Part shown: one piece after another, positions 40,990 to 64,000 of the stretch | Layout of the letters: every line of letters begins with the position of its first letter | How positions within the stretch are numbered: the first letter of the stretch is position 1 | NCBI GenBank assembly: GCA_047495785.1 | Contig: JBLDXI010000024.1 | Span: 1,364,001 to 1,428,000 of the forward strand | Length of the DNA: 64,000 bases | Direction: 5' to 3' | From: Lepidodermella squamata | Taxonomy: Eukaryota; Animalia; Gastrotricha | The notes under the pieces: generated by a model | What the model saw: the letters and a program-made list of their open reading frames with translations, nothing else | The model's database searches: none | What the model was told of the DNA's origin: nothing | Program-made: the position numbers and the translations under genes

Positions 40990-42888
40990 AAATATTATTG
41001 CTGCTGGCGTAGCAATCGCCTGTAGTTTTGAGTCAGTCTAACAAATACAACCGTTCTCTCCTGCAAACTGCAAATTTTCCCTTTTGCACATGAGGCTTCT
41101 TTACCGGCACTCAAAATCGCCATCGAAAAGTTCAGCAATCGATCAGAAATCCCACCGGACTACAATTTGGTACCAATTAGGTCCGTGACGAGGAGGGTCT
41201 CTTCCAGTGCGAGAAATCGTCCGTTATGGGAGAATGCGGGAAAATCGCCCGGATGATGGCCTCATCCGCTCTCCTGTCATCGTTAAACCCTTCTTTTCTA
41301 TCGGATGTAAGCCAATGGGAAAGCCGCTAACTTACTTTGACATGGTCGGTTATGCAATGGCCTGCTACGCACCCTATCTATCAGACCGCATAACCTACCC
41401 AAACCATTATAATATCCAGAGAAACGGCGAGTTAAATGCTATTGGATTGGTTAGCATTATCAAGCAAGTCGGCTAAAATTGGTGTTCTGACGATTGTCGG
41501 TTCGCCACAGGATTATGCAGCGGGTTCATACGTGGAGAAATACGCAACAGCTAGCGGAATTTCTATCCCAACGTTCAACGTTGTGTTGTAGATAACTGAT
41601 GATGTGATAAAAGATCTAGTTTTCCATGAGGTTCGGATAATCCTGGTCTACAGCTTGGTATGCTGGTCTCACAGGGTCGAGATACCTATTTTTCCTGAGC
41701 AACTCACGCGCCGGCGAACCTGTTTCATCACCCCGGGAGCAATAGTTGACGAGACTTGTAATAAAGAAATAATCCGCTAGCAATTATACAACTCAATTTT
41801 CTTCGGACCTGGTACTCAGGTTCTTGCGATAGCCGAGTGAGCGAATTGGGGTATTAATTCTTGAAGCGACCCCGCCTTATGCTTGTAAAATACATATTGT
41901 TAATTCTCCTATTGCCAAGATTTTCGGCTGTATCGGATGCTTAGGTCTTAACGGAGCTGCAATCGCGTTCGCGGTAAAAAGGGGGCGAGTAGCTTTGTTA
42001 TTGCAGTAGTAAGGCTGGTTCTACTAATTACTTCTCTATCAGTTTTGAATGGAGCTATTTCATTCAGCGCGTTTTTTCTGGCACGGAAACTGCCAAAAAT
42101 GCCCTAGATGTTCATATCCAACCAGAATAGCAAATTACTCAGCATGGCTCCAGGGAATCATTCTAAGGCTCAAATCGTTATCGCGAAAGCTGATGTCAAT
42201 ACGTCACCAGGTGTGCGCCCGCCTATGACACCCGATCTTCAACGCCGAACAGATAATTTAGCGGGATGCGAAAATGTTGTCACAGTATCACCTGTTCCTC
42301 GGCAACATTTGATTGATGCGAAACCCACAATCTCAAACCGGAGTACAAATCGAGGTCGCAATCCTAGTACCGTGGTATCGGAATTTGAAAACGGCATCGA
42401 CCGAAAAACTTTCGGCTTCACTACGATTTTTATGGGTATTAACCTTCTCATTTTGGCTAGCTGGCTACTTTCCGACACTCTATCCTGCCGTACTGTCGTA
42501 GCTCGGAAAGCCAAAACTATGACCCTTTATTAGACACATTTTACGACATCTATACGGAAATCTGTACCTCAGCAAATGCCATGTCCTGGATGACTTGTCT
42601 GGCTTTTTTCACGTGGTTTCGCAAGCTTACTGCACTTACCAAGGATACCATGTAAAGCAGCGATTGAAGATACTGGCAAACAACGTCTGTTCCGAGATCA
42701 CAGGCGTTATTCTTGGCCCGCTGAATGGTTTCTCTCTACTGCTTTGCTTCATCCTAGTTGTTTTCATCTTGGGCGATGAAAAACGACAGCATATAGCTTT
42801 CTCATTTATGGGGCTATTTTATTCGATGAGCACGAGCATCACCATGAGTTATACTCTCCTTCAACGCATCATTAAAGTAATCCGCTGA
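40990..42888 (+). pseudogene. Degraded class C GPCR paralog with an internal deletion
   Basis: Recognisable pieces (ENRPDDGLIRSP, FFSIGCKPMGKPL, SRVSELGY, ARKLP, GPLNGFSLLLC) with stops and frameshifts; the distal VFT to TM1 segment is missing near 41860. The 5' boundary is approximate. Confidence 0.8.
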
Positions 42889-46530: not shown

Positions 46531-47692
46531 TCCACATATCAGTATAAAAAACATTTTCAAGTGACAATTATTGCATCGTAGTGTGTGGTGTTATTTGTCA
46601 AGGACGTACTCATGGAAATGTGATCTTCCAGCACCGTTCAACAACTCGGATTAAAGCTTGCTTCACAGGCCGCTTTATTAGCGTAGAAAGCATCGGTTCT
46701 GAGCCATTTTGACTTTTTGGGTTGATGGTTTCAAGCAGTTAAGGGGCCGACCTGAATTGCAGCAGGCGATGGCAGGCTGCAGAATTTTTGTAAACCGATA
46801 CTTCAGTACTAAAATAAGAATAGCTAAAAAATAGATTACTTGCTTGTTTATAAGGCATAAGGCAGAGAGCCTTGGGTGTTTTTGAATACAGGACAGGGCT
46901 CAATTATAAAGCACGTCTCCAATTGATACGTCCGCATATTTTCTTGAGGATAACAGTTGTAAATAGTACGTTAAACCAACGCCAGCCCTGCCGTTCCTCC
47001 GTGCGCGCAGTATAAAAAGACTATGAAGAAACCGACCAAGGCACAGTTAGTCAAAATGCATAACTTATTTCCGCCGATTTATGGCCTGACGCCTGCTGCT
47101 GAAATTTCGGGTTCCGGGACCAGGCCGATTAATGTTGTATCAAAAACTGCGTCAAAAATAAGTCATTGACCCGACAAGTTAGTCATTGTCGCAGTCTGGA
47201 ACATATGACATTGAGCATGGCATTCAGGGTGCGAAGTACAGGGGTGCCGGGTGCTGGGTGCTGGGGTGTCGCGGCTCCAAATAGAGGAAGGCTGAAAAAA
47301 ACACAGGGGGACCCTTTGGTTTCTTCGGCTGGGTTCTAGAAAACAAGTAGAAAACACTTCAGCTCCCGGATCCTACTTCGCACACTGTCTCTGATAATCG
47401 ATAATCATATATCTAAAGCAATGAGCGAGGAGAAGAGACATCTTAATATAGAACACTTCGCCTGTCCTCATCAACGCAAAACGGCAGTGGTCAAGCATAA
47501 AGTTTTCAAAGCCTCAGAAAACTTAGTTTCTGAATTTCAGTAACTCAAATGGTTGTAGATTTATTGAACCATCGTGGGTCATCGCACTAACTCGCAGTAG
47601 GACCGACTGCGATATCTAATTTATAGAGATTTGTCTCTAGTCCTGGGGACTTAATGGCGTTTCTTAAATGCCATAGAGCTATTTTAAAGACG

Positions 47693-48753
47693 CCCAGACC
47701 GGCACGAAATAAGCTGAAATACGCTGAAATAATTAAGCTGAAATAAGCTGGCAAATGATTTCAGTTGATTTCAGTTTAGCGTTTTTCCAGCATATTTCAG
47801 CTTATTTGTTTCAGCGTATGTCAGCTTAAAGCTATTTCAGCGTTTTTCAGCTTGTTATTTCAGCTCTTTCCAGACGTGGAAAATTTATTTCAGTTTATTT
47901 CAGCGCGTGGCGTCATGCTATTTCAGCGTATTTCAGCACTTTTCCGTCCATTTTTCATTTTTCATATAAAACATCAAAATCTTCAAAGTCGATAATTTCC
48001 TGAAAATTGATCACCATTCACATGATCAGAACGGTATAGACAAAATTTCTAAAAATCGAAATTTGAAATTGAAATTTCACCCACTGCAAAATTCGAACTA
48101 TTTAAATGATTAGCAAGAATCAAACCTGAGAGGGACATTAAAATATTAAAGTTTACACAATGGTGTTGTCATGAAAATAACTTACAAATTTCTTGATAAT
48201 TTTTTGATAATTTGATAATTTTATTGGATCGGGTCTTGAATTCAATGGCGAACTGACGAACAGTTGTATTTGCATATGCACACTTGTATTCTGAGGGTAA
48301 TTTAGCTCTTTTCAGCATGCAATAGTTGCTAACTGAAAGCTGCCAAACTGAATGCCCGATTATAATATAACATGTTAGTGTAATATTTCAGCAATTTCCA
48401 GCTAAAAATTGTTTTAGCTGAAATATGCTGAAATTCTGCGTTAAATAAACCGAAACTCAGGCTCTGCCAAGTCCTGGAAAACCATTTTGAATTTCGCGCA
48501 ATGCGTCGTACAGAATTTCAGCGTATTTCAGCTTGCCGATGTCGCCGCGTGCTCATTTCAGCGTATTTCAGCACAGTGCGTCGATGGATTGCAAAAAAGC
48601 ATGACTTAGCTAAAAATCTGCCGAAATGTGCGCAGCCCAGAAATCAGCTCCAGCGTATTTCAGCGGCGACGAACTCGCCATGCCTTATTTCAGCATATTT
48701 CAGCTGATGAAATCAGTTCCAGCACATTTCAGCTTATTTCGTGCCGGTCTGGG
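47693..48753. mobile_element. Non-autonomous TIR DNA element with subterminal repeats
   Basis: 28-bp TIR CCCAGACCGGCACGAAATAAGCTGAAAT with its exact reverse complement ending at 48753; many ATTTCAGC/GCTGAAAT motifs in both arms; no clear TSD; no real ORF. Confidence 0.8.
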
Positions 48754-49178
48754 ACTAGCTCTATGTTACATGCCGATCGACAGATTGCAACGGGCGATTA
48801 GAAGAAATGTCCATCGACGAGCTACCCAAGCGAGTCAGCTTGCCTTAACGCTTTTGAGGTCTTTAACTTGGACTGGGTTGAACAGCTGGCGATTTTCTAA
48901 CAGGAATATTTGGACTGATGGTGAGCTTGTGTTCACGCAGGTAATCATAAACCCGTGAACCCTATATACGATAGAGAATTGTCTTTTCTTCCATATAATT
49001 TGAGTTTTCATCGCTTCAGTCGTTTTTTTGGATATCCACGGCAGATCATATGTTTGTTTTCACGCGATGAGTATTGCCGGCATTTAATCAGGTGTTGTTT
49101 TGTAATTTCTCCCTATCATCATCTTCATTATTCTTCAATATATATTCTGCATTACTAGTAGTAAGGATGGGAACTTTG

Positions 49179-49344
49179 GATCAGTAATAGCAGTACGGCG
49201 ATTTTTACTATAGCCGTTTGGTATAAATATACGCAATTTGCGATCAGTAATGGCAGTACGGCGATTTTTACTATACCCGTTTGGTATAAATATACGCAAT
49301 TTGGGGATGAGTAATAGCAGTACGGCGATTTGTACTATAGCCGC
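49179..49344 (+). repeat. Subterminal tandem repeat, 63-64 bp unit, about 2.6 copies
   Basis: Units start at 49179, 49242 and 49306 (gatcagtaatagcagtacggcgatttttactatagccgtttggtataaatatacgcaatttg). Confidence 0.9.
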
Positions 49345-49609
49345 TTCTTGTCAATATACCTTCGTTTTAACCCACTGCTATGATTTCACCTAACTAAAAT
49401 AAACAAATCTTCGTTTTTTCACCTGTTATGAGCTAAACTAATCATTTTTACACTGCTTCTTTAGTGCAGCTGCAATAGAGCCCTTTTTCATTCACACAAA
49501 CACTTTTTATTAGTCTTAACGTTTCAAGCAATGAATTTATAGCTGGGATAAGTCTTATCAGTTTTTCTATTCATTTGTTCAGAGATTTGTAGCGGCTTGA
49601 TTGGAGGGG

Positions 49610-50113
49610 TTAACGTCCAGATGAACCGAATCCGTTATCGCCACGGGTCGAATTTGCTGCTAGAGCGTTTTTCAATGGCCCCGTTACCGTTACTGCAGAT
49701 TCTAAGCGACCATATTTTAAACACACCAACTGGGTAATACGGTCGCCTATTTTAATCTTGTAAGGTGTTTTGCTGTTGTTTGCAAGGCAGACTACGATTT
49801 TTCCGGTGTAGTCGGCGTCTTTAATTCATGAAAAATACAGATATTCATTAGTAATTTTCATTATTATTTGCTTCTTACCTATTACTCCAGCGACCGTATC
49901 GATTCCATGGTTGATGCTCATTCCTGATCGACTGAATAGTTGTCCATAATATCCTCGTGGTAAACAGATTTTAATATCAGTTTGAATCAGTCCCCTGGTT
50001 CCAGGTTGCAGTGTCGTCTCTTCTGCTGAATAGATGTCCCAACCCACAGAGCCTTTAGTATGCTTTGTCGGTTCTTTAGCTTTGTTACTTGTTAGCTCTA
50101 CCTTCAGCTTCAT
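49610..50113 (-). CDS. DUT: dUTPase, 2 exons (intron 49819-49878)
   Basis: Motifs GWDI, SRSG, GVI|DADYTG (spliced), GDRITQL, RGDNGFGSSG. Confidence 0.93.
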
Positions 50114-50547
50114 ATTTTATAATTTATATTGTTACTGAGGTTCGATTTTTATGTGAGCGGCTACCTCCTTTCAGGCATATTGTTTTTGTAATTCAATCTT
50201 CCTTAAAAATGCATTAGGGCCTTTAGCTCTGTTGACCCCTCAGTGCTGGCTTTAATGCTTTTCATCAAAGATTCTTGGTATTGTATACATCCTCCTTAAT
50301 TGCTGTCGGTAATTCAATAAGAAAACATCATGTCAATAAATCTTATACATCCTCCCTAATTAAACAATGCGATTTTTTACTTATCAAAATAAAAAGCAAT
50401 TAGGATTTTTTACCCTTTACGGTGTAATTACCTTAAACAATTCAAACAAAACATCTCCCTGTTTTTTCCTTTTATGGAAATATCACTCAGACTATTTAAG
50501 AGAGATGCTTCAAGAATACACTTAGCATATTTCTTGAAGCAAGCTGG

Positions 50548-51312
50548 ATGCATCCTAAAGTCTACCATTTCGGCATAGTCGGCAACATTGGGGCGTAAGT
50601 CTCATATACTCCACCGAATAGAATTCTATTTAAAGTCTCTTGTTTTAGCGGGAAATCAACCTTAATCGAGGGTCTCACTAATCTACCTTCACTCAACCGT
50701 AAACTTCAGGGATATACCGCGTGGCCAATTTGCGAGCCTGTTCATCGTTGGGAGTCCTTTACTGATGACGATAAAACTAACATTTTGAAAGATTACTATC
50801 AGATGAAAAATGCGTTCAACTTTCAAATTGTAGCCACGAGTGATATGTGCGGCCTTTATTCAGCCCCTAACCACAAACCTGAAATCTACGGGGCGCATAC
50901 TATCGTTCTGCATGATCGAACGCCCTTCTGTTCTAAAAACGTCTTTATCCCATGTGCGTATGCATCCAAGCGCATAAATTCTATCGAATATCACGCTCTC
51001 ATGAATTTGTATGATAATTTCGAGCCGAATTTTGTAAAAACTGAAGCTATTATTTACTTGCGCTCCTCTCCCCAAATAGCTTGTCAAAGAGCCGTAGCTA
51101 GAGCTCGGGGTTCTGAAATGCTATTATCACTGGATTATTTACGCCTCGTACATGAGTTTCATGAAAAAATGTGTACTGTTGAGACTACAAACAAATCCCT
51201 ACCATGTCCCGTGCTTGTTATCGACACTGATAATTTGAATGCCTCTGAGGTTCTAAAGCAAGCTTCTCAGTATGTTGCCTCTCTTATCACGCCTGTAATC
51301 TCTCAGACTTGA
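50548..51312 (+). CDS. Deoxynucleoside kinase (dNK/dCK/dGK/TK2 family), 2 exons (intron 50595-50648)
   Basis: Spliced P-loop GNIGA|GKST, EPVHRW, FQ, DRT, IIYLRSSP..RAVARARGSE, YLRLVHEFHE. Confidence 0.9.
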
Positions 51313-51322
51313 ATCCTCATTG

Positions 51323-51685
51323 ATGGATCCAACAAGACTTGTGCTCTCGAACAGCCAGATTTTAGACGCTGAATCTTTGCAATGTCCAATTTGTTTATCT
51401 ATCCTACTTAATCCTATTCAAACGCGCCCCTGTGGCCATTTATTTTGTACTAAATGTGTTCTCGCTATTTTTCAAAATTCAGCTCGAACAGTATGTTGCT
51501 GTCCACTTTGCCGCGAATCATTAACAGGGAAAGATTTCGTTAAACCCCCTGTAATTTTATCGAACATTATCTCGAATTTGATTTACAAATGCCAATATTC
51601 TGATAAAGGCTGTCCCATTACTCTAACTTATGACCTCATTTTTGGGCATGAAAAGTTATGCCAATATAAAGAACCCATCCCTTAA
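51323..51685 (+). CDS. C3HC4 RING finger protein with TRAF/SIAH-type zinc finger (putative E3 ligase)
   Basis: CPIC...PCGHLFCTKC...CPLCR followed by CQYSDKGC...HEKLCQY. Confidence 0.88.
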   Translation: MDPTRLVLSNSQILDAESLQCPICLSILLNPIQTRPCGHLFCTKCVLAIFQNSARTVCCCPLCRESLTGKDFVKPPVILSNIISNLIYKCQYSDKGCPITLTYDLIFGHEKLCQYKEPIP

Positions 51686-51727
51686 AGTTTTACATTCTTA
51701 TTTCATTAGATTTAATTTTCAATAATC

Positions 51728-52249
51728 ATGGCTGAGGCGATAGTAGAATCTGCTAACCAGACAGTCAATCATCACATGTCTAGTAACTTGGTCATTCAAC
51801 AGCATCCTCAGGATTCTAATCTCATCTACATAATGACTGATCGCAAAGATAAGAACGATAAGCCTAAAAAACTCGCCTTTAGACAAGACGAATTTCTTAG
51901 CCAGTTCGTTCCTTATTTTCGACCGCCGAATGATGCTTGGGTTGCTCAGGCTCAACTTGCCCTGCTATCTCACAACACAGGCTTTAAATTTTCGATGCAT
52001 GAATGCAAAATTGAAGTCTGTGTCTTTGTGCCATCATTTTCACCGATTCTTATAGATATACGCAGGTTTTATCTGGATGCTAAAGGTATTTACTTCAAAT
52101 TTACAGTAATAGCAATCTTTTTATGATTTAACTTTTTAGGAAATAAACAACCCTCAAGACAAGGAGTCTCTCTTGATGCAGCTCAGTTTCAAGACCTTGC
52201 AACTGGGGTGTTAACTGTTGCAGCGATGATTGAAACAGCCAATGAATAA
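51728..52249 (+). CDS. PC4/Sub1-like ssDNA-binding protein, 2 exons (intron 52086-52139)
   Basis: Spliced LIDIRRFYLDAKG|NKQPSRQGVSLDAAQFQDL parallels the PC4 core (IDIREYW...KPGRKGISL..EQW..L). Confidence 0.82.
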
Positions 52250-52435
52250 GCTAACACAAAACTTGACTAAAATGACTTACTGAATATTTATTTCAATCTA
52301 TCCTTGTAATAAAGTTTTACCTCTTCCCAAATTCGATCAATTTTAAATTTTTAATCTTAGATTGTTATGGATAACTATAGTTTACAATACTCATTTATTC
52401 GAAGTAATCGCCTGATTCATTCTACAAAATTCAAA

Positions 52436-55400
52436 ATGTTTTCTGTGGAGTACTTCATTCAGCCCGTAACATCCGACTTTGCCTCAACCTACATCAACAG
52501 ATATGGCCAATCTTCTAGTTCGCTTGGGCCGATGATTCAATTGTCTGGTGGCGCTGATGAACCTCGACTGGATAATATTCGATCATTTGTGCAGAACGTA
52601 CCAGCCGACCAGGTGGCTAATATTGATTTGGAGACCCGCTTCAATATTCTGGCCAACTTCCTGTTCGATATTGTTGTAAATATCCATCGTGATTTACCTG
52701 TGAATTCCTTCTGCCGGCTAACACTGTACCACCCCGACTTGAAGATGCCTCTTAGCCTACCCTTCATGAAACGCGATCGGTTGCTGGAAATTTCAATTTT
52801 TGATCAACTGAGAAAAATATTACAGAGTAATGAAGAACTCTCATTTGCTGGTCGGTGGACAATTCGTCTCTGTGTCATTGATAACCCCAATGCAGATCTA
52901 GGTCAAATTGTTGGTGGTTCTCGGGCAGAGCGGGCTATAAACGAAACTTTGGACAAATTTTTTCTTCGCTCCAAATCGATCGTTAGAATCGGAGCGCGCA
53001 AGAATGAAACGAACAATCTTTGCATGGGCAGAGCTCTCATCACTGGAGTGGCTTTGGCTCACATGAAGGCGAATCCTACGGATCCATCTCTTCAAGCAAC
53101 CTTCAAATCGATACGTAGTACGCGAACCAATCGTCAATTTCGCGAAGCCACGGCGCTATATCAGAAAGCGGGCTTACCTCTCAACCTTCCAGCCTACAAT
53201 CTAGATGATCATTACTCAGCCCTGTGTTCGGCTATCGATCCTGAACATAATACTTACAGATTCGTAGTATACTCGTACGAATCACAGGATGTTATTAGGG
53301 AAATCCCAGAATTTGATCATCGCGTAAGCCTTGGGTTGCTTCCTGTTGTTCTACTGGTTTATCGCAACGACGTCTCTCAGCCCAACAGTCATCATTTTCA
53401 TGTCATTGCGAATCTCAACTTTATGAAGGCCACTCTTAGCAATGCACAACGAATATGCCCCACTTGCTTTCAGACGAAAACGAGTACGGCTGTGCACAGA
53501 TGCAAGTTGGCATGCTCTTCCTGCCGTAATTTTTACATGAAAAACCTGAATTTCACTTCTTTTATCATTAATATTATTTTAGGTGTATCAGGGAGCATTT
53601 GCCGTGTGATTTCCAACACAGACCAACAAAACTACACGCGGTGTCCGCAATGTCGTGCAGGTCTGATGTTTTTAACCTTTTCATTATTATTCAGCTCTTT
53701 TTATGTTTTTAGTTTTGTATAGCGAACGTTGTAAGCAAAACCACAAATGTGCTAAAAAGAATCCATGCTTTAAATGCGGGAGGAAATTTGTACATTTTCT
53801 CAAGCATGAGGCTATGTGTCCCGGGCGGCGCTGTCACATTTGTCAGGAGCCTTTGAAAGCCAGCGACGAAGAAAATGGCACACACTTCTGCTTCATGACT
53901 CCCTTGGTATACTCATTTTTTTCAGTCCAGCTTTTTTCAAAATACTGTGGTTGGTGTATTTTTAGCCCTTGAAACCGGCGAATAAACTGGAACGTTATCG
54001 TAACCTAGTTTTTTGGGACACTGAGACATTTTCGCCATCACTTGCTGATAACAACAATGAGTTCCAAGTATGCCTTATCGTTGCAAAGGTCGTATGCATA
54101 CCTCACTGCATCGAAGCGAGGATTCAGCGATGCCATTCTAGTTGTGGACTTCATATTTTTTATGGAAGTCGTCCTCTGGAGGATTTCGTAAACTGGGTGC
54201 TTCTACCTATGAATTACCAGTCGATTTATTTGGCTCACAACTCAGCCAATTTCGATTCCTTATTATTACTGAAAGAAATTCAAACACGATGTTCTAAAGT
54301 GAAGATTCTTCAAAGGCAGGGATCTCTACTATGCATTGATTTCAAACAACAAAAAATCAGATTTTTGGATTCATATCTCTTTTTTCAATGCAGATTAAGG
54401 TAGGTTACCTAAGAAACACTAAGAAACTACATTGCTTACAGGTATTTGTTCAACAACAGGGATTTACCAGCAACAATGGGAATCCCAGACAAGAAAACCT
54501 TCTTTCCTTACGTCTTATGCACTAAAGAAAAGTAAGTACATCATCAACTTCTTGAGCTATTGTGATTGAATTCGCTGTAATCCTTCGAGTTTCAATCTCG
54601 AATTCCCACAGCTGCCTAATATGATCTACTATGAGCCTGACAAAATGTCTCCTTCTGAAAGAGCAGAATTTCTAACTTTCTACAACGAAAACAAACTGAA
54701 ACGGTTCAGTGTTCGCCACACGTTACTGCAATACTGCATACAGGATTGTCTAGTTTTGGAAAAGGCGTCAATCAAATTTCGGGCGCTAATGCTGGAGTTG
54801 TGTTCTACTGATGCCTTTAAAGAATGCATCACACTAGCTTCTCTCACAAGCACATGCTTCCGCAAGCTGTTTCTTACGAAGGATACATTACCTGTCATCC
54901 CGACCGCTGGCTACTGTGGCAAGGATTCACACAGCAGGCTCTCGATAGCTTTTCTTCAATTTCTGATGGAGTCTGACCCTGAAACTTATGGTTCAATGAA
55001 ACACGCTCAGAACTCACGTCAAGAAGTTCGAATATCTATACCTGGCCACCGTTATCCTTATCGCGTCGACGGTTTTGTTGCACGTCGTGATAAAATTCCG
55101 AGTGAACCCGATCTGATTGTCGAGGTTCATGGTTGTGCTGTCCATGGCTGCTTGCAATGCTTTGAGGCCTCACAACTAAATTTTCTATCTGGACAACCAA
55201 ACGGCGTAGTTTACAAGCAAACCTTGGAACGTGAAGAGTTGTTTCGCTCGAATGGTTACATTCTTCAAAGCTTTTGGGAGCATGAAATTAGAGCTAGTTT
55301 CAAACAACACCCGAGAGCACAGGAGATTTATGATAATCTCACAATAGCTAATGTAATGGAGAGCCGTTCGTTTTTCTTTGGAGGTAACTGGAGGTTTTCC

Positions 55401-57222
55401 CTATTTAATCTTCGCGGGATTAAAACATCATGCCTACTTTTTAGGGCGGGTCGAAGCTTTTCGTTTAATGGCTATGATTGCCGAATCACACTCAACTTCA
55501 GGCGACCAAAATTTGGAAAAGATTGCTCAAATTTGTAAGGAAAGCGGGATGCAAACCAAGGACTTCTTATTTCCATCGCCCGATTATTCTATAATTTCCG
55601 CCGACTTCAACTCGTTATATCCAAGCTGTATGATGGATGGCTACTATGCAATAGGACCACCTAAAGTATCCACCTTGGATCTCAGATTAAACAACGAGAA
55701 ACTGCAGGAGATTTATTCAAAGGAATCTTTTTTTGGTGTCGTACAAGCACGCGTAAGCTCTTCGCATCTACATATCGTCTCCCTGCTTTCATCATCACCA
55801 CATTATTTTGCTAGGTATTAGCGCCGAAAAACATCTGGCTACCTGTACTCTGCTTTCGTAGTAAACAAAACAAGCTCGTGTTCTCATGTTGCTATGCTTG
55901 TTCGTCGACTGCAAATCCAAACTTGTGCGTTTCAAGCCGTGAATGCACCCATTCTGATTATGAAAGGTCCTGGATTGGTTCGTATTGCTCTGTGGAACTG
56001 AAGTACGCTACAGATGTTCATGGCTACAGATTGCTGGAAGTCTACGAGGTTAATAATTTTGTTTAGCCAACTCATGCATGGCTTCTATCAAGTTATTTTT
56101 TTTAGATATGGGAGTTCAAGAAGAGCAATACAATTTTCAGAGATTTCATTAAAAGATTCACCATTTTGAAGGCCGAATCCTCCGGCTGGCCGCCAAACTG
56201 TGCTACTAGTGAACAAAAAGCACAGTATTTGGAGCAATGGGAACGCATTGGTATAACGATTGATAGCACCAAGTTGGATAAAAAGAACCCTGGGTTACGC
56301 GCGATCGCCAAATTAGTTTTGAACAGCTTTTTTGGTCGATTTGCTATGAATTCTAATCTAGAGAGAACAGATTATATCAAATCCCCGTTTCTGCTTCAGC
56401 AAATGCTAAATAATCCAGCTTTGGAAATTGTGGATATTCAACCACTAGGCTTACTCATCAACTCTGATGATGTCTCTCGCTTGCGAATTGTAACACGGCC
56501 AACCAAAGATGCCGACGTTCCAAATGGATCCACCTCAGTTATAACAGCGGCCTTCGTAACAGCTAATGCTCGTGTGAAACTGGCTCGTGAGCTGTACCGA
56601 GTCGGCCCAAAAAGTGCTATCTACAGCGGTTAGAGAATAGCGCCGCTTATGCTACCAACATCTCTACGTTTTTTGTCTTTTGTTTTAGACACGGATTCAA
56701 TTTTTTGCCTTCAAGGGCCTGGAATTACTAAAATTGAGTTCACACCCGTTCTTGGCGGCTTGGCGGATCAGCTTGATACAGGGCAACGCATCATTGCAAT
56801 GGTTGTACTGGGCTGTAAGGCATATGCCCTACTTTTTGCTGACGGCAAAGCCAAGCTAATGTTAAAGGTAATTGCTACTTGTTGTTACGCCCTCTGTTTT
56901 TTATTATTTACGTCACGCGCAGGGAATACGTCAAAGTTTTCATTCACGCAGTCTTCTCGATTTTTTCTTGTTCATCAAGCATGTAATACAAAGTCTCCAC
57001 GATAACGAAACCAGCGGAAGCGGGGGCCGGGGTGATAACAACAAAAACAGCGTCATCGCTGAATTGGATCAGACTCAGTTTAAAAAAGTGCATACTCCGT
57101 TATCGGAAATTCATTGTGTTCATATAACAAAAAAGATTCGTTTAACCTATGATAAACGTTGGCTACGCCCCGGCGATGCTTCCTTTCTAACTTATCCACA
57201 TGGATATAGCGCTGATCAATGA
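52436..57222 (+). CDS. pPolB: Protein-primed family B DNA polymerase, about 11 exons
   Basis: ExoI FWDTET, ExoII AHNSANFD, FLDS, ExoIII YCIQD, VSR/endonuclease-like insert (VDGF..EVHGC..HGC..WEHE), FFGG|RVE, motif A DFNSLYP, motif B KLVLNSFFGRF, motif C YS|DTDS, K|GI, YDKR..TYPHGY. Introns: 53526-53582 (in frame, least certain), 53661-53712, 53907-53965, 54400-54459, 54532-54589, 55384-55444, 55753-55814, 56049-56105, 56629-56688, 56868-56922. Start at 52436 or 52367. Confidence 0.93.
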
Positions 57223-57229
57223 TCGATTA

Positions 57230-58381
57230 TTACATGAATAAACTCCAAAACCCTGTGCCAGCTTGAAACTTGTTGATTTTATTTATCTTACGCTGTGACG
57301 TTCTTCGGAAAAGTTTTCCAGGTGGTGATATTTGTGTTTGATCAGTCATAGAACGTGGCTTTCTACCGCGCTTTTGACCCTTCCGTGGCGTTGCCGCTGC
57401 AGTTGCTGCTCCAGCTAGCTCAATTTCCATCGGTTCAGCGGCAGCGGCTTCTTCTTGTCTTTCTGCTTGATTATCATCATTATCAGCACCATCTTGCAGC
57501 TCTTCACTATTGCTGCCGCTGCTGTCCTCATCGCCGCTAAACGAAGACGACCCTGCTGTTGTGTTGCTGTCTCGAGGGGCCTGGGGGGTGCGCGCGCGGG
57601 GGGTCCCTCCTCTCGTAGGCAGCTGCTCATCATTAGGCCGATCAACAACAACATCATCGTGGCTGAGGACGGTCGTGGCTGCAGCGCTAGAAGTCGATGA
57701 TGTTTGCGGGGCAGCGAATAGAAAATCCATTTGAAGATCATCAAATTCATAATTGCTGCTATTATCAGTTGAAGGTCGTGGCGTTGTATTAGGTGAAAAC
57801 TGCTGCTGAAAGCCGCCAATACCCGAATCTCTGTTATAGTTGTTATAGCTAGGCCCGGCCGCTTGACCAAAATTACTAGATGTTAATTTAGTAGGTTGTT
57901 GGCGCGCAAGTTGTTGTTGCTGCTGTTTTTTTGGAGGAGGAGGAGGAGGAGGAGAAGAAGCAGAAGGAAGCGGCGGCGGCGGCAGCGGAGGAGGAGGAGG
58001 AGGAGGAGGAGGAGGAGGAGGAGGAGAGCGCGGCCTCGATTCTGCTCGATCTGCTGGTGCAGGCGACATTGGAATAGCGGCTGGCGGCTGGCTACTGCCT
58101 TGTAAAACTACCAGCTTCTTCAAATTCATAATCTCATGCATGAGTTCGTTACGTTTTCGCACTAAATCGGCTGAATTATCACTACTACTAGCGTTGTTTA
58201 TCACATCCCGGTCTAAAGACTGTAATAGCTGCACTAGTTTGAAAAGCAGAGGATTGCTCAGCAATGTTTTAGCAGCAATCAAGTCGCTCGCGTTTGGTTG
58301 TTGTTGTTGTTGTTGTGCTGGAGTTGGCCCAGGTGTCGCAAGTGGAACAATAGTCATGCGCTGTGCATAGTTTCGCTGCAT
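57230..58381 (-). CDS. Polinton accessory protein, polyproline/low-complexity
   Basis: 383-aa ORF: coiled-coil-like N-terminus, poly-Pro encoded by (CCT)n at about 57933-58026, acidic segment, basic NLS-like tail. Confidence 0.7.
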   Translation of the reverse strand: MQRNYAQRMTIVPLATPGPTPAQQQQQQPNASDLIAAKTLLSNPLLFKLVQLLQSLDRDVINNASSSDNSADLVRKRNELMHEIMNLKKLVVLQGSSQPPAAIPMSPAPADRAESRPRSPPPPPPPPPPPPPLPPPPLPSASSPPPPPPPKKQQQQQLARQQPTKLTSSNFGQAAGPSYNNYNRDSGIGGFQQQFSPNTTPRPSTDNSSNYEFDDLQMDFLFAAPQTSSTSSAAATTVLSHDDVVVDRPNDEQLPTRGGTPRARTPQAPRDSNTTAGSSSFSGDEDSSGSNSEELQDGADNDDNQAERQEEAAAAEPMEIELAGAATAAATPRKGQKRGRKPRSMTDQTQISPPGKLFRRTSQRKINKINKFQAGTGFWSLFM

Positions 58382-58384
58382 AGT

Positions 58385-58798
58385 TTAGATTCGAAGAAGC
58401 CTCTTGAGTTCTGAATAATCAAACTTTAGCCTGGGTGCAAAGGATTTCAATACAGTGGGTAAAACTGCAAAAAAGGAAGCTTTCGAAGCCTTATTTCGCC
58501 TATTGTTCTTGTTGCTATTAAGGCAGTGTCGAATAAAAACTTGCCGGTTGTGCTCGACCAAATTGACACCTTTTTGTTTCAATTTAGCCAAATCAGGGGC
58601 CAGAACAGTACTAGTGCTGCGAAGCCAATACAAGGCGCAACGGCTAAGAAATCGTATAAGGCTAACAGAGCTAGTTGCTAAAATATCAGCACGCTGACCG
58701 GGGTGAGCATGCAATAACCATTTCAATGCAAGAAAAAGCCGCCGTTTTTTATCAAGACTGAACGATGGTGACGTTGCTGAGGTAATAACTTTATTCAT
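58385..58798 (-). CDS. Small basic Polinton protein
   Basis: LKWLLHAHPGQRADILATSSVSLIRFLSRCALYWL resembles the small basic ORF commonly found next to the Polinton ATPase; tightly packed on the same strand as its neighbours. Confidence 0.6.
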   Translation of the reverse strand: MNKVITSATSPSFSLDKKRRLFLALKWLLHAHPGQRADILATSSVSLIRFLSRCALYWLRSTSTVLAPDLAKLKQKGVNLVEHNRQVFIRHCLNSNKNNRRNKASKASFFAVLPTVLKSFAPRLKFDYSELKRLLRI

Positions 58799-58849
58799 TT
58801 AACGACGAAAATTGGGCGGCAATGAATCCTTTTATAATAGTACATATCA

Positions 58850-59693
58850 TCATTTCTTTGAGACTAAAATGTAAGCGTAACCAGGTTTACTACCGAAGCC
58901 ATTGCTCGAACGAATGCGGAGATTATCCGGAGTAGTTGCACAATTATCCAGTAGCAGTGGCGTGTGAGATGATTCAGCAGTTGCTTGGTTCAACGCTTCA
59001 AGAAGGCCTCGCCAGCCCATTGGGGAACGCCGTTGTGCATATGATCTAAAGCTTGCAGAGTCGGAAATGCAGCGAAAATAGAATAAATAGTTTGCATTTT
59101 GCTATAGAATAGAAAATACATAGAAGAAAAAACAATAATTTTCTGAGGCAAACCAGAATTTCCCTGCTATTTTTTGCTCGAGTAAACAAAACTTGTTGAA
59201 GGAGAATGGTTGTCGTATTCAAGTGCCGCCCTCCTAAAAAAAGCTGTACCAGTGTTTCGTCTTCAGTTAATAGGCGATACACGTCATCAAATACTAGGCA
59301 ACAGCGGGGCTGCGTCTCGTTATTGTCGTTGATATAATTTTTTAAGCTGAAGCTATCGCTACTGCTGTTTTTTGTGTCTGCTAAATTTACGAATTCAACT
59401 TTAATTTTGTGAACTTGCAATGCAGCATCGGCTATGTCATTGTAAATGGGTTGGAAAGTAGAATAAAAATAGACAATTCTCTCAAAAGGAAGTTCAAAAC
59501 TGAATGCATCCTGTAGGATTTGAAGCACCAGACTTGTTTTACCGCTCCCCGACCTGAAGATGAGTAAATTACACTAAAATATATTGACTTTTATTTCCAT
59601 CGTCACTTACGGCCCAACAATGAGAATTGTGCTAGGGTGAACAAAAGGCAAAGCTTCATTTATGTTGCCAGGGCAGCAGCGCAAATCACTCAT
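58850..59693 (-). CDS. A32/FtsK-like DNA packaging ATPase, 3 exons (introns 59554-59610, 59102-59153)
   Basis: HPSTILIVGP|SGSGKT Walker A (spliced), LVFDD Walker B, GGRHLN, LLQQ, REIL|QNANYLFYF. Confidence 0.92.
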
Positions 59694-59696
59694 CCT

Positions 59697-60260
59697 TTAT
59701 AATCTAACGTTACAGGGTTTTATTCTTTCAAGTGGTCTCATAGATAGACCATAGTGGGAATATAATGTATTAAATTTATGATAAAGTACACAGTCTTTTA
59801 TAAGCAAATTGTTCTTTGATCCAAGCTGATCAAAATGCCTCAAAATTTGGTGCATGTCTTTACCTCGCGCTCGAAGCATGCTGTAATATAGAGCCCATAA
59901 GCCGCAGATTTGTGAAAAAACATGCTGGTAAGACCTATTGCAATGAATGTACGGCACTTCTGTTTGGCTATTCGCTTTCAAAAAGTTGTCGATATAGAGG
60001 TTATGATAGGAAGGGGAAAGGTTAAGGCTATCGAAAAACTCACAGGGCTCATCAGGATGCTGTGCGCTGTGAACAAACAGTGTGACCCAGTGCTTTCCTG
60101 TAGAATTGTATACATTTCCTGTGTTACAGATAATCAATTGTGGATTATTTTTCACAATAGGAAGCTGCTGTGGTAGCTGATCAGCGGCTACAACAAAAAT
60201 GTCAAACTTTTTTAGTACTGGATCAATCCGGATGAAATCTTCCAATTCATTGTTGTACAT
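59697..60260 (-). CDS. Adenain-like cysteine protease (capsid maturation)
   Basis: ICNT...GKHWV, EFFDS, YQ....ICGLW provide the catalytic H/D/Q/C. Confidence 0.92.
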   Translation of the reverse strand: MYNNELEDFIRIDPVLKKFDIFVVAADQLPQQLPIVKNNPQLIICNTGNVYNSTGKHWVTLFVHSAQHPDEPCEFFDSLNLSPSYHNLYIDNFLKANSQTEVPYIHCNRSYQHVFSQICGLWALYYSMLRARGKDMHQILRHFDQLGSKNNLLIKDCVLYHKFNTLYSHYGLSMRPLERIKPCNVRL

Positions 60261-60270
60261 GAAAAACTGC

Positions 60271-61761
60271 TTAAGAATCAACAATTACGTCACGCGTTCG
60301 TGTGATCTTAAAAAATTTGAATTTTAAGGCAATTTTAATTTTATGAAAAAAGATGATACCTCAAAAACTGAATCAGTTTCAGTTAATACTAACAGCTGAG
60401 TAACAATTGTTGTTTGAACAGCAAAACTCAACTCTACTCTGCAGGTACCTGTGCGTATAACTGAGTAATTTTGCAACGAGGAGTTGCGCGATAAATCGAA
60501 ACCAAAAATTGTGAAGCCATTAATAAACTGATCCATAGTTAACGTAGATGCCTTGAAAGGGTTATCTGGGTTGATAGCATTGAGAAGCTCCAAATAGACT
60601 CTGGTGACATCTCCATTTGCAAAATCCATTTCCAAGGGAGCTGTTGAGTGATGTAGTTCATTGCCCAAATAAATCGATATTCGGGATAGCTGGCTGTGTA
60701 ATGCATTCAATGGATTTTTACCCGCCGTTCCATTCAGGGCGGAATCTTCAAAAAAACAGAAAAACATACGCCTTGGAAGCTTACCATTAATACATTGTGG
60801 TATCTGTTAAACCATTAGAGTTTTAAAAATTGACTTAGAAACGCGCGATGAGCAAACTTACACTGTAACTCAAAACACTACTTGGTATGTGAAAAAGCCT
60901 TGTTCGAACTCTCATTATAGGATATTTGGCGTTAGTTTTTTCCAGCGCACGCGTATGAGCAATCACTATGTCCGGCGACACAACAACAGCCCGGGCAATA
61001 ATTTTTGCAGATTCAATGACGATTGAGTGAGGATCAGCTGTGCTCGGCCCAACCAAAGCAAAATTGTTAGATGCCCTATAGAGCTTGATGCGGACTTCAA
61101 CATTAGGTAGAAGTAGCCTATTACACAGCATAGGATCTGCAAACAGGCGTCCCAGGGTGCACACAGATTTCCCGCCCTGAACAATTTCCAACCGTTTTTT
61201 AAATCCCTCGTTTGAATTGTCAAAATTATCCAGTTTTTTAGCTGTATCAGGATACCAAAATTGTGTCTGTAATATCGTGTTTTTTGCATCAGTATTATGA
61301 GACAAAAGCGTTGAAATATAGGCCCGATAAGCGTATAATGAATTTTGTTCACTTAAAAGTTGCCCATTTAGTGAAATCTCGCATGTTTTGAACATTGTGT
61401 GGTGGGCTAAACAAAGCGGGGCTTTTTGTAAATTTGTAGCCGAAAGACTAGCCTTATACTCGTTGTATGCATCGTCAGCTTCGCCAGCATTTTTCTTCCG
61501 AGCTTCAGAAGGGGTTCTAACTACTTTCCACTTGAGCATCAGTTGCATGCGTGACAGACACAAATAATCATTGTACGGGCCGATTTGAAACTCAATCAGG
61601 TTCGGTGAACTATTAAGAGGGGCAATTGGGTAAACATCTATACTTATTTGGTTTTCTTCAGCAAGCTGTGAAGGCGGTACAGTAAATAAATCTAAATCTG
61701 AAGATAATACTATTGAAGAGGCTGAGGCTGGGTGAACAAAATTATCTCCAAAGCCTTCCAT
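60271..61761 (-). CDS. Major capsid protein (double jelly-roll, Polinton PY), 3 exons (introns 60804-60861, 60307-60359)
   Basis: SDLDLFTVPPSQ, IEFQI, YAYRAYISTLL, LLPNVEVRIKL, AKYPI, GKLPRR, NPLN, FGFDLS, terminal E|ITRTRDV. Confidence 0.9.
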
Positions 61762-61794
61762 TACAAATTTGAAGAATCAAACGCAGCAATGGGC

Positions 61795-62337
61795 TCAAGA
61801 CGCTTCAAATAGCACTGATTTAGTTGTTGCGCGTCTTTTCCTTTTATAAGCCTTTCTTTTTGTAGTAGAAGCACGGCGCCTACGTTTTGCAGTCACACTA
61901 CTAGTTTTACTAGGGCCACGACGACGGCGCCTTTTACGGCCACCTCCACCGCCTTGATGTTGCTTCAAAGCCGTTTCAGCAATATCCTTAGCCATGTTTA
62001 AGGCGCCTGAAGTGCCATGACGCTTAAGGGATTCGGTAAAACTAGGTCTAGCGCCCTCAGGTTGTTGCATATCACCTAATATTTTTTGGCCAGTAGATAA
62101 TGCTTGTTGAAAAATAGACGGAGCAATTACTGGGAAGAAATTTCTGAAAAAGGCACCTAATATATTTCCTATTCCCTGACCCCTATAATGATATGGAAAT
62201 TGAATTGTTGCCCCACGGAAATGGTCCAGGTTAGCACCCGCTCCAGCTCCATAGCCTGCTATCAGCGGGGAGGAGTGTTGGCGGAGAAAAAACTGCTGGT
62301 ACTTGTCAACGTTTTGGTTAGAATAAGCTAGGGGCAT
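61795..62337 (-). CDS. Polinton core-like protein (GxG-rich amphipathic N-terminus, Arg/Lys-rich tail)
   Basis: YRGQGIGNILGAFFRNFFP conserved-type motif; QGGGG followed by a protamine-like tail RKRRRR...KRKRR. Confidence 0.75.
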   Translation of the reverse strand: MPLAYSNQNVDKYQQFFLRQHSSPLIAGYGAGAGANLDHFRGATIQFPYHYRGQGIGNILGAFFRNFFPVIAPSIFQQALSTGQKILGDMQQPEGARPSFTESLKRHGTSGALNMAKDIAETALKQHQGGGGGRKRRRRRGPSKTSSVTAKRRRRASTTKRKAYKRKRRATTKSVLFEAS

Positions 62338-62375
62338 CTTCGGTAATATTAATAATTAGAACTCAGCCACTTATA

Positions 62376-63596
62376 TTAATATAAGGCTCCGGTTTTTCGG
62401 CGAATATGAAGTAGCAATACAACTTTGCTACCATCCACAAAATCGATCAATGCCCCGTTATCGCGGCGGATTTGAACTTGAATTGAATCTATAAAATTGG
62501 CTTTTAAAGGTAAATATAGGCCCGAGTTATAAATCACTGTAAAATGTGATGACAAGTCTGAATTTGCCGTAGCAGAAGCCATCGTAGAATAGGTTATCAT
62601 TCGAAGGAGGCTAGCTTGGCAATCTCCAACAAAAACATCCGCTGCAACTGAGCAGTAAATGAACAGTGAGTTATTGCCATAATTCAACTGAATGTTGTAT
62701 TGAGCTGTAGCACTTTCTTCATAGCATGCATAAATAAAGGCAGGCGGTAAATCATTATCTTTGGTGATTACTGTTTGCTCAGAAAAATCAAAGTGCTGTG
62801 CTGAATTTACGCCTTCTTGATTTTCTACCGCCGCTGTCTCATTATTTGCATCCTCCTTAAGTTTTGGTCTGCTAGAAAGCCTAACAATCCCAACTGAGTT
62901 GAATAAAATGTGTGGATTTTCACGAATTTGGTGGCTCATATTCCACGCATATGCCAAGGCATACGTTGACTTTATATCAAAAGTGGAAACTTCATTAAAT
63001 TCTGGCTCGTCATTTTTTGGGGCCTTGGGAAAAATGAAAACTCCAGACGGTGTATTCTGTTCTATTGGAGACACAAAACCTAAGAGGCCAGCAGAATCTG
63101 AAGGTATAAACATAGAATATGGCCATTTACAGGTAATTTTAGTTTTTTTGTTGACTGAATCATAATGAGCAAAAATAGAGCCATTACTACTTGAGATGGA
63201 TATTTTTTCATTAAAGTGATCGATTAGTTTGGTTATATTCGCAAAATATTCACCTCCGAAATTTACTTTGTTAATAAAGCCAGTTTCCCATGGATTGTTG
63301 AAACTTTTCATCCGATGTGGCAAAGAGCCAGGATTTGTTAAATAATTAGCAATAATGTCGTTTTTAAAAGATTTCAGCCAGTTACAATCAAGCACATAGA
63401 CTGTATGACGATCAATGCTACTCCACCTAACAGGAATTGTAGCCTCAAGTAGGGCTACTTCATAAGCACGGCAATCGGGTACGCAAATTGGGACAGGGAG
63501 AGCAACTTGATAATCCGACGGAGTATTCGCCGGATGTTGAGAATATGAGGCATTCGAGGGTAAATAAATAAAGAAGTCCTCCTGGATGCTAAGCAT
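62376..63596 (-). CDS. Minor capsid/penton protein (single jelly-roll, Polinton PX)
   Basis: FFIYLPSNAS..HPANTPSDYQVALP..YEVALLE at the N-terminus; LFIYCSV..VGD..LLR..YLPL..IDSIQVQIRRDNG..LLLHIRR at the C-terminus. Confidence 0.88.
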   Translation of the reverse strand: MLSIQEDFFIYLPSNASYSQHPANTPSDYQVALPVPICVPDCRAYEVALLEATIPVRWSSIDRHTVYVLDCNWLKSFKNDIIANYLTNPGSLPHRMKSFNNPWETGFINKVNFGGEYFANITKLIDHFNEKISISSSNGSIFAHYDSVNKKTKITCKWPYSMFIPSDSAGLLGFVSPIEQNTPSGVFIFPKAPKNDEPEFNEVSTFDIKSTYALAYAWNMSHQIRENPHILFNSVGIVRLSSRPKLKEDANNETAAVENQEGVNSAQHFDFSEQTVITKDNDLPPAFIYACYEESATAQYNIQLNYGNNSLFIYCSVAADVFVGDCQASLLRMITYSTMASATANSDLSSHFTVIYNSGLYLPLKANFIDSIQVQIRRDNGALIDFVDGSKVVLLLHIRRKTGALY

Positions 63597-63792
63597 TTGT
63601 TATGTTATCCTTATCTATCTTTTCTAAAGTAAGGATTGCGCTGTTGCCAAAAGGGGGGAGCTTAGTTTTGAATAAATAGTTTGAAATTTCTATAAGCCAA
63701 ACGGTTATTAGAAGGAAAAAAATGTAGGCCCCTACACGCACAGATGGCTTTTGTAGGAAAGCTAAGAGTGGAGTCGTAGGAACTCTATTCAT
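63589..63792 (-). CDS. Small single-TM Polinton protein
   Basis: 67 aa with hydrophobic VGAYIFFLLITVWLI; its ATG overlaps the integrase stop and its own stop overlaps the penton start. Confidence 0.55.
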   Translation of the reverse strand: MNRVPTTPLLAFLQKPSVRVGAYIFFLLITVWLIEISNYLFKTKLPPFGNSAILTLEKIDKDNITNA

Positions 63793-64000
63793 GAGGCCAA
63801 GGTTTTGATCTCGTTTGCATCAATCCAACTAGCGGCTTCAATCGGCCAGTTTTGCCATTTCACAAGAGCCTGTTTCTTGCCATTTATAGTGCGATGCTTC
63901 AGAACTTTTTCTATTAAATATGTTTCTTGCGGATGTGCTATCTGAAGCTGCCAATCGTAAAAACTACCTTGAATACGCTTATTCAGAGTATCACGGAGAT
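63789..64000 (-). CDS. Retroviral-like integrase, C-terminal chromodomain part (5' portion outside the window)
   Basis: LRDTLNKRIQGSFYDWQLQ...YLIEKVLKHRTINGKKQALVKWQNWPIEAASWI-stop, the typical Polinton integrase tail with a chromodomain. Confidence 0.85.
   Translation of the reverse strand, partial: LRDTLNKRIQGSFYDWQLQIAHPQETYLIEKVLKHRTINGKKQALVKWQNWPIEAASWIDANEIKTLAS

Follow-up and report, generated by a model that had tools for sequence, protein, structure and literature searches.

At the end of the window analysed here, a 64,000-nucleotide stretch of the genome of the gastrotrich Lepidodermella squamata, a Maverick/Polinton is integrated from position 49157 up to the window end. Its hallmark genes encode pPolB, an A32/FtsK-like packaging ATPase, an adenovirus-type protease, a major capsid protein, and a penton. 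The left end (49157..49343, + strand) has AGTAGT as its first letters, includes 2.6 units of a 63-bp repeat at 49178-49343, and likely belongs to a terminal inverted repeat. Sequencing runs were compared as assembled contigs, and in those of the DNA-type run X1 the depth climbs within this left end. One X1 contig tracks the host flank to 49156, continues with 483 unrelated letters, and is likely the empty site. The sequence and the X1 contig together make the six host bases at 49151..49156 a candidate target-site duplication with its partner copy beyond the window. The first-pass annotation had called the element apparently intact, which holds for the 14.8 kb inside the window; the right end and the integrase core lie outside it.

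Genes of the element

The first gene encodes a dUTPase (49610..50113, - strand, 147 aa) with one intron (49819-49878) and two matches to PF00692, one per exon (positions 2-70 and 69-129). It is followed on the + strand by a deoxynucleoside kinase (dNK; 50548..51312, 236 aa, PF01712), whose single intron (50595-50648) lies in the P-loop, and by an intron-free gene for a 120-aa protein with RING and Sina-type zinc-finger matches in Pfam (51323..51685). The next product (51728..52249, + strand, 155 aa, one intron at 52086-52139) is provisionally labelled PC4-like on the basis of a motif; a Pfam search with its exon 1 returned no PC4 match, and its pairwise similarity to a PC4-like protein of locus L001 is weak (E 0.098).

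The polymerase gene, pPolB (52367..57222, + strand), has ten introns, at 53526-53582, 53661-53712, 53907-53965, 54400-54459, 54532-54589, 55384-55444, 55753-55814, 56049-56105, 56629-56688, and 56868-56922. PF03175 is matched on four exons, and the 11 exons, each translated alone, tile in order a 1328-position profile built from 37 full-length homologues (exons 1 to 6 at profile positions 106-368, 365-384, 388-447, 452-582, 584-608, and 615-857; exons 7 to 11 at 872-918, 921-990, 991-1161, 1164-1224, and 1231-1308). Fragmentary pPolB homologues mostly leave few residues unaligned at their ends, and these ends, judged by eye, do not cluster at the intron sites. In the structure model of the polymerase a Vsr/RAP-like nuclease fold is inserted (Z 7.6 to Vsr 1cw0 and 8.6 to a RAP-type chain); a Foldseek search with exon 6 gave no match at E 0.001.

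The remaining genes are all on the - strand. An intron-free proline/glutamine-rich ORF of 383 aa (57230..58381) has no family match, and a 137-aa ORF (58385..58798) weakly matches (E 0.014) a small ORF of Polinton locus L006. The A32-type packaging ATPase (58850..59693, 244 aa, PF04665 at E 3e-7) has two introns, one in Walker A (59554-59610) and the other at 59102-59153, and its three exons align to successive parts of unbroken homologues. Beside it lies an intron-free gene for an adenain-like cysteine protease (59697..60260, 187 aa), which matches an ORF of locus L056 at E 8e-16; its counterpart in L001 matches Peptidase_C5, and the window protein alone gives a weak match to Peptidase_C48 (E 0.034). 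The major capsid gene (60271..61761, 459 aa, introns at 60804-60861 and 60307-60359) has at least 80 homologues, with E values down to 3e-42 in the best 80 of 504, two of them named F54H12.2-like. The major capsid proteins of Polintons have a double jelly-roll fold. A basic, intron-free ORF of the virion module (61795..62337, 180 aa) matches ORFs of three Polinton loci (L069, L075, and L077) at E 1e-8.

The minor capsid protein, or penton (62376..63596, 406 aa, no intron seen), matches locus ORFs at E 2e-12. Its structure model resembles PBCV-1 capsid chains (Z 14.1 and 13.2), a Sputnik chain (12.8), and the mavirus penton (11.3), and also adenovirus capsid chains, all with Z between 10.6 and 14.1. 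An insertion of about 130 aa, modelled with low confidence, was considered as an intron and rejected, being open in frame and not of intron size. The ORF list adds a small 67-aa ORF with a possible membrane segment (63589..63792). At the window end is the chromodomain tail of an integrase (63789..64000, PF00385), which shares 48% identity with the corresponding end of a 365-aa ORF from locus L002; a like-sized ORF in L001 consists of rve and Chromo domains.

Seventeen introns and their splicing

The six interrupted genes contain 17 introns of 52-62 nt (median 57), all GT-AG: one each in the dUTPase, dNK, and PC4-like genes, ten in pPolB, and two each in the ATPase and major capsid genes. These counts and sizes, proposed in the first-pass annotation, were reproduced in full on recomputation. 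Core genes (pPolB, ATPase, and major capsid) hold 14 of the introns and accessory genes three. Intron GC content is 30%, versus 42.5% in coding DNA. Once the introns are removed, no stop or frameshift remains in any of the six genes, as had been claimed, and the tiling of the pPolB exons agrees. By computation, retention would truncate the protein for 15 of the 17 and replace the C-terminus of the capsid protein for one; pPolB intron 1 is the only intron both in frame and stop-free. The effect of retention supports the claim that the element depends on the spliceosome; capsid production, also part of that claim, is predicted from the genes.

The sizes also look host-like, as had been suggested. 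A host receptor gene in the window has ten predicted introns of 53-62 nt and 28% GC, and their length does not differ from that of the element's introns (p 0.53); several host genes of the window consist of a long ORF free of introns. Searches with this receptor in the ESM Atlas and with a host sulfotransferase (best match 35%, from a sea urchin) point to nothing narrower than a divergent animal. No branch-point motif was consistent across the 17 introns, and a splice-site matrix scan for additional introns was swamped by chance matches. Since GT..AG pairs of such length are common by chance, and the scan gave many look-alikes, the case for the introns rests on run data and homology and not on motifs.

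The splicing evidence comes from two further runs, the transcript-type X2 and, from a second study, X3. X2 was marked as RNA by guess and X3 carries no type; the RNA reading is drawn from the contigs themselves. In X2, contigs break off in poly(T) at 49345 and at 58438, and one has a putative adaptor as its end at 52182, features that mark this run as cDNA. Among the joints listed, X2 contains the exon joints of at least 11 of the 17 introns, at least five of which are also in X3; the DNA-type run X1 contains none of the listed joints. The dUTPase joint is present in X2, those of dNK and the PC4-like gene in both X2 and X3, and those of ATPase intron 2 and major capsid intron 2 in X2. One X2 contig of 4731 nt (record 11) spans 52466-57777, or 5312 nt, and the difference is exactly the 581 nt of the ten pPolB introns; four more pPolB joints follow from this length, which for this transcript also excludes any extra spliced intron in the interval. 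For major capsid intron 1 the support is indirect: an X2 piece stops at 60803, leaving 35 letters unaligned. Among the joints listed there is none for ATPase intron 1, and one X2 piece (59466-59597) enters this intron. Checking transcript junctions, a step that the first-pass annotation had recommended, therefore yields at the level of contigs at least 11 of 17 joints directly, four by length, one indirectly, and one unseen in spliced form. X2 covers 62418-64000, the penton region, little or not at all, and X3 covers 58600-64000 almost not at all, coverage by contigs being unable to show absence; a fourth run, X4, has next to no match. With GT-AG ends in 17 of 17 and these joints, the interruptions are spliceosomal (U2-type) introns, most of them seen spliced.

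Copies, relatives, and intron gain

In X1, single-contig depth is 1533-2186 within the element and 86-109 for two contigs of the flank, a 14- to 25-fold difference, although depth is not copy number and free DNA or amplification could produce the same. Between 58040 and 64000 no X1 variant reaches 3%. From the high depth, the near-identical copies, and the likely empty site, we conclude that the family is likely multi-copy and recently mobile.

Relatives of the capsid protein that span the intron sites are unbroken there in 74 of 74 cases (site 1) and 59 of 59 (site 2), among the best 80 of 504, and the loci matching the ATPase do so as a single segment in 20 of 20 (one being the query itself). 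This survey used gap-free patterns in relatives drawn mostly from metagenomes; it favours unbroken genes and so cannot show that intron-bearing relatives are rare. A break in locus L042 was considered as an intron and attributed instead to a second capsid copy or a misjoin. A scan of viral contigs yielded a single locus, L001, with a polymerase of a different type and unbroken genes. No relative above 40% identity, which could have dated the gains, was found. The suggestion that a Polinton lineage acquired introns while functional is supported by the splicing seen, the effect of retention, the unbroken capsid relatives, and the look of a multi-copy, young family.

Adenoviruses are Polinton relatives that use the host spliceosome, in their case for regulatory alternative splicing of long transcription units rather than for many short constitutive introns in catalytic motifs, and they are not known to integrate. 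The core genes of animal Mavericks are described as intronless (PMC8097293; bioRxiv 10.1101/2022.07.12.499685), and in nematode Mavericks introns occur in cargo genes alone (bioRxiv 10.1101/2022.07.12.499685). The present element shares with animal Mavericks/Polintons (eupolintoviruses, "adintoviruses") pPolB, ATPase, protease, capsid proteins, an integrase chromodomain tail, an AGT-type end, and an organisation in two modules (PMC8097293; PMC8502044; bioRxiv 10.1101/2022.07.12.499685), but differs from those in print in its 14 core-gene introns. By the fold match of the polymerase model, it may be placed beside the pPolB2 Polintons with a VSR domain known from molluscs and a marine nematode, for which the part of PMC10748475 at hand does not mention spliceosomal introns. 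As far as the excerpts of PMC12166617 go, dinoflagellate eupolintoviral proviruses likewise carry spliceosomal-type introns in full-length Polinton-like elements; those introns, however, are transposon copies that recur, with about 25% falling in coding regions, the authors call it unclear whether the proviruses are intact, and no spliced viral transcripts are shown, whereas here the introns are mutually unrelated, all in coding regions, and mostly seen spliced, in an animal host. Among functional or nuclear DNA viruses, punuivirus, a latent giant virus of Chlamydomonas, has host-like spliceosomal introns in 61 of 506 genes (bioRxiv 10.64898/2026.10.09.758095), but it belongs to another virus group with a protist host, its introns occur preferentially in latency genes, and the intron of its capsid gene is of the group I type. 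Intron-rich mirusviruses, from the portion of PMC12768974 available, also have host-like spliceosomal introns, in another virus group with protist hosts. Our literature search found no comparable intron-rich, spliced Maverick, though an earlier mention may exist in Repbase or in Kapitonov and Jurka 2006 or Pritham 2007; a text search of PMC4028283 and PMC11131425 found no word on introns, splicing, or exons.

Interpretation and significance

What, then, is this element? We propose with considerable confidence that it is a Maverick/Polinton with 17 host-sized spliceosomal introns in its polymerase, packaging, capsid, and other genes, one that was likely mobile recently, that likely gained its introns over a long residence in a host dense in introns, and whose copying or packaging would require the host spliceosome. 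Gene content, open exons, 11 joints seen directly and four by length, and high depth are the observations from which we infer the rest. By established Polinton biology, the element would be transcribed in the nucleus by host RNA polymerase II, its spliced polymerase would carry out protein-primed copying of the DNA that starts at the ends, and the integrase would reinsert it. Introns would have been acquired singly, by the same process that gave host genes their many introns of 50-60 nt. As copying would go from DNA to DNA without reverse transcription, a gained intron would pass to every copy and rarely be purged, and introns would be tolerated as long as host splicing is clean, even where they interrupt Walker A motifs or the polymerase active-site motif.

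The fragmented ORF track could instead mark a decayed or host-tamed relic, its breaks being chance insertions or the introns of one domesticated locus, and Genewise is known to take large insertions in dead Mavericks for introns (PMC8097293). Joints in two studies, GT-AG ends, the lack of any remaining lesion, the near-identity of many copies, and a clean left boundary for which the empty site was likely seen largely refute this, and we regard it as very improbable. A burst of insertions by an introner (an intron-generating transposon), of the kind known from dinoflagellate eupolintoviruses, also seems an unlikely source of the introns. Introners in such elements are already in print (PMC12166617, in the part at hand), and pPolB intron 3 lies between the two copies of a duplicated 6-bp stretch of exon; the other 16 of 17 introns, however, have at most one duplicated base, junction repeats are not in excess (p 0.11), and the 17 introns show no similarity above shuffles (the best pair was equalled in 5 of 100) and no second copy in the window. 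An old, decayed burst could fit these data.

Two further proposals concern how the element lives rather than what it is. The introns may be kept by selection if transcripts that mimic those of host genes escape the silencing of intronless foreign DNA, chiefly in early (replication) genes. The left module has 13 of the 17 introns but 6261 nt of the 12267 nt that are coding (p 0.03 in a one-sided binomial test, a weak statistic picked post hoc), and in human cells intronless mobile elements are silenced by HUSH (PMC8770142, as excerpted); such surveillance is hypothetical in this host, however, and neutral gain fits the data equally well, so we entertain selection only as a tentative possibility. 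It is somewhat doubtful, though compatible with our preferred explanation, that the high, uniform depth stems from copies that replicate as free DNA in the sequenced material, in linear episomes or packaged virus, with few copies integrated; the element would then be an active virus as well as a transposon. The near absence of variation at such depth and the complete set of capsid, penton, protease, and ATPase genes point that way, but a burst of integrated copies looks the same and contigs cannot tell the two apart, nor can the scant X2 cover of the penton gene be interpreted from them.

Returning to the spliced, recently mobile Maverick that we favour, its introns bear on how such elements are counted. 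Large surveys presume that introns are absent. One study justified its prokaryotic gene caller by stating that endogenous viruses "do not contain introns" (PMC10120064), another left introns out of account (bioRxiv 10.1101/2025.04.19.649669), and a third took intact elements to be those with intronless ORFs (PMC8097293). The first-pass annotation expected ORF-based surveys to miss the element or call it dead; missing it is too strong a prediction, as capsid exon 1 alone finds at least 80 relatives and such surveys would pick up fragments, and it would more likely be called degraded. A spliced, multi-copy element with 17 introns shows that intron-blind filters can miscount living Mavericks as fossils. 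More speculatively, intron-bearing Mavericks could be widespread but scored dead by ORF surveys, with this element at the extreme of their range: a particle-making lineage of animal DNA viruses with host gene architecture, down to ten polymerase introns and interrupted catalytic motifs, its introns perhaps a mark against silencing and a tie to hosts that splice introns of 50-60 nt. Because relatives are unbroken at the tested capsid sites, these are clean cases of intron gain in genes of known ancestry. With them it becomes possible to test how, and how fast, animals gain introns, and also whether introns limit cross-species transfer, which is known for Mavericks.

Gene content and open exons of the element

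Here, we identify the stretch from 49157 to the window end (64000) as a Maverick/Polinton on the basis of its gene content, and one that differs from the intron-free state described for these elements. Its first bases, from 49157, are AGTAGT, and a 63-bp repeat comes next. The left module encodes a dUTPase, a deoxynucleoside kinase, a RING protein, a PC4-like protein, and a protein-primed polymerase (pPolB), with the first four forming a block for nucleotide metabolism and regulation beside the left end (49610-52249). The right module, on the opposite strand, holds a packaging ATPase, protease, major capsid, basic ORF, penton, small ORF, and two unassigned ORFs, and its last piece is the chromodomain tail of the integrase, through which the window end cuts. 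The structural model of the penton matches the mavirus penton, one adenovirus chain, and capsid chains from PBCV-1 and Sputnik (Z 10.6-14.1), while polymerase exon 6 is predicted to fold like Vsr/RAP nucleases (Z 7.6 against Vsr). The element would share this fold with some marine Polintons, in whose polymerase it is reported (PMC10748475, in part).

The first-pass annotation had counted about 17 host-sized introns and no leftover stop. All 17 were located (dUTPase 1, kinase 1, PC4-like 1, pPolB 10, ATPase 2, major capsid 2), all being GT-AG and 52-62 nt long (median 57), with 30% GC vs 42.5% in 12,267 coding nt, and falling in phase 0 (n=7), phase 1 (n=6), or phase 2 (n=4). With the introns removed, the six genes are indeed stop-free: dUTPase (147 aa), deoxynucleoside kinase (236 aa), PC4-like protein (155 aa), pPolB (1424 aa), packaging ATPase (244 aa), and major capsid (459 aa). 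Translated singly, 11/11 polymerase exons are stop-free, and one after another they cover a profile built from 37 full-length homologues without a large gap, exon 2 by itself giving a weak match (E 0.16). Intron retention truncates the protein in 15 of the 17 cases and in another replaces the last capsid residues; pPolB intron 1 is the sole in-frame, stop-free intron. Several introns interrupt what we take to be catalytic motifs: the kinase P-loop, the ATPase Walker A motif, and the active-site motif of the polymerase.

Splicing and copies in public contigs

Four public runs were compared, as contigs only, with 46600-57800 and three of them with 58040-64000. That most of the introns are removed from transcripts is borne out by X2, a transcript-type run classed as RNA by the tool's guess only, where the joints listed cover 11 of the 17 introns: those of the dUTPase, kinase, and PC4-like genes, pPolB introns 1, 2, 3, 8, 9, and 10, ATPase intron 2, and capsid intron 2. 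Among the joints listed, five of these 11 are also present in X3, a transcript-type run from a separate study, and the DNA-type run X1 spans the introns and flank, with zero depth at every listed joint. A single X2 contig covers 5312 nt of the polymerase region in 4731 nt, the ten polymerase introns totalling 581 nt, and X2 pieces end at 54397, 54590, and 55381, in agreement with polymerase introns 4, 5, and 6. Capsid intron 1 has indirect support from an X2 piece that halts at 60803 with 35 letters unplaced. ATPase intron 1 is the exception, with no joint among those listed and one X2 piece extending into the intron. X2 looks like cDNA in that its contigs carry poly(T) at loose ends (49345 and 58438) and what is presumably adaptor at 52182, and in that it leaves 46600-46973 uncovered. 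The loose end at 58438, from one low-depth contig, lies inside a 137-aa ORF, ahead of its stop.

Single X1 contigs on the element have depths of 1533-2186 vs 86 and 109 on two flank contigs, although the tool cautions that contig depth is not copy number. No variant at ≥3% was found in 58040-64000, and in 46600-57800 one difference inside the element was among those listed. At 57458, a third codon position, the dominant X1 contig departs from the window, with which X2 and X3 agree. One X1 contig at flank depth matches 48724-49156 (433 bases) without difference and departs from the window exactly after 49156, and is likely an unoccupied site. Many near-identical copies, together with this likely vacant site, point to recent movement or free replicating DNA, and the contigs fit both equally. 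Just left of the insertion (47240-48730) the host DNA is repetitive, with short TTTCAGC-rich arrays among the repeats, and X1 depth there is very high. The X2 organism label is unlike that of X1 and X3, yet X2 contigs match the element without difference (49500-57300); either the labels differ as a matter of naming, or the element passed between species very recently.

Host introns and the probable gain of introns

Animal-type genes flank the element. In one of these host genes, for a receptor, ten introns are predicted at 14350-15383; they are 53-62 nt long with 28% GC, and their lengths match those of the element (p 0.53). On these predictions the claimed likeness to host intron size holds. 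The gene (13627-17000, plus strand), which we take to be Cys-loop receptor-like from its motifs, is extremely intron-dense: no fewer than 10 introns in a row, each 53-62 nt long, divide ~190 codons, and exons are as small as 9-30 nt. Intron-free host genes adjoin it. Genes for class C (GABA-B-like) receptors cluster at 17017-46530, where five long ORFs (788-874 aa) lack introns, two neighbours are 85% identical, and two further paralogues are broken, at about 20904-23273 and about 41066-42873. An intron-free ORF at 20277-20912 (plus strand) unusually joins a ubiquitin-conjugating (E2) domain to a SOCS box at its C-terminus.

Were the introns gained? Related capsid genes were examined at 81 loci, one on a viral contig and the others the best 80 among at least 504 confirmed metagenome matches. 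The capsid match lies in a single open frame in 75/81, the other six having stops, frameshifts, or a second copy. Capsid site 1 is unbroken in 74/74 loci spanning it and site 2 in 59/59, and ATPase matches are a single segment in 20/20 loci. This sample is biased to unbroken genes, and hence informs on the ancestral state at the sites rather than on the rarity of intron-bearing relatives. With these sites unbroken in relatives, the interpretation of intron gain in this Polinton lineage is supported.

How might the introns have arrived? A recent burst of introners (intron-generating transposons) is unlikely, since no similarity was found among the element introns or between them and the rest of the window, and just 1/17 has a flanking duplication. 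That one, 6 bp of exon sequence at pPolB intron 3 (53901-53971), may mean that this intron was gained when DNA was inserted at a staggered cut. Most likely, long residence in an intron-dense host lineage would have let the element acquire introns through the host's own process. It would be transcribed in the nucleus and then spliced, splicing being shown for most introns, and would be copied DNA to DNA, as is established for the family, so that every copy would inherit the introns. The introns may be neutral passengers or may shield the element against silencing; the left module holds 13/17 of them (p 0.03, post hoc), a bias like that of punuivirus, a latent giant virus of Chlamydomonas with introns enriched in its latency genes (bioRxiv 10.64898/2026.10.09.758095, in part).

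Standing against the published record

Three papers, in the parts consulted, state that core Maverick genes or elements lack introns (bioRxiv 10.1101/2022.07.12.499685; PMC8097293; PMC10120064). Outside supplements, the founding papers, and Repbase, our literature searches turned up no paper describing an animal Maverick whose core genes are spliced, and PMC4028283 and PMC11131425 gave no match on introns, exons, or splicing. Group I introns occur in PLVs (PMC12220804), and among published cases the introners of dinoflagellate proviruses come closest (PMC12166617), both from partial text, as is the remaining comparison literature (PMC8502044; PMC5718144; PMC6431247; bioRxiv 10.64898/2026.07.28.741278; 10.1101/809541; 10.1101/2025.04.19.649669).

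Thus, the observation of an intron-rich Maverick/Polinton, as read over 49157-64000 from sequence and contigs, is confirmed. The interpretation of intron gain in a functional Polinton lineage is supported, its particles being putative and its integrase core and right end lying beyond the window. Its intron-bearing core genes are a departure from the intron-free state described for Maverick/Polinton.
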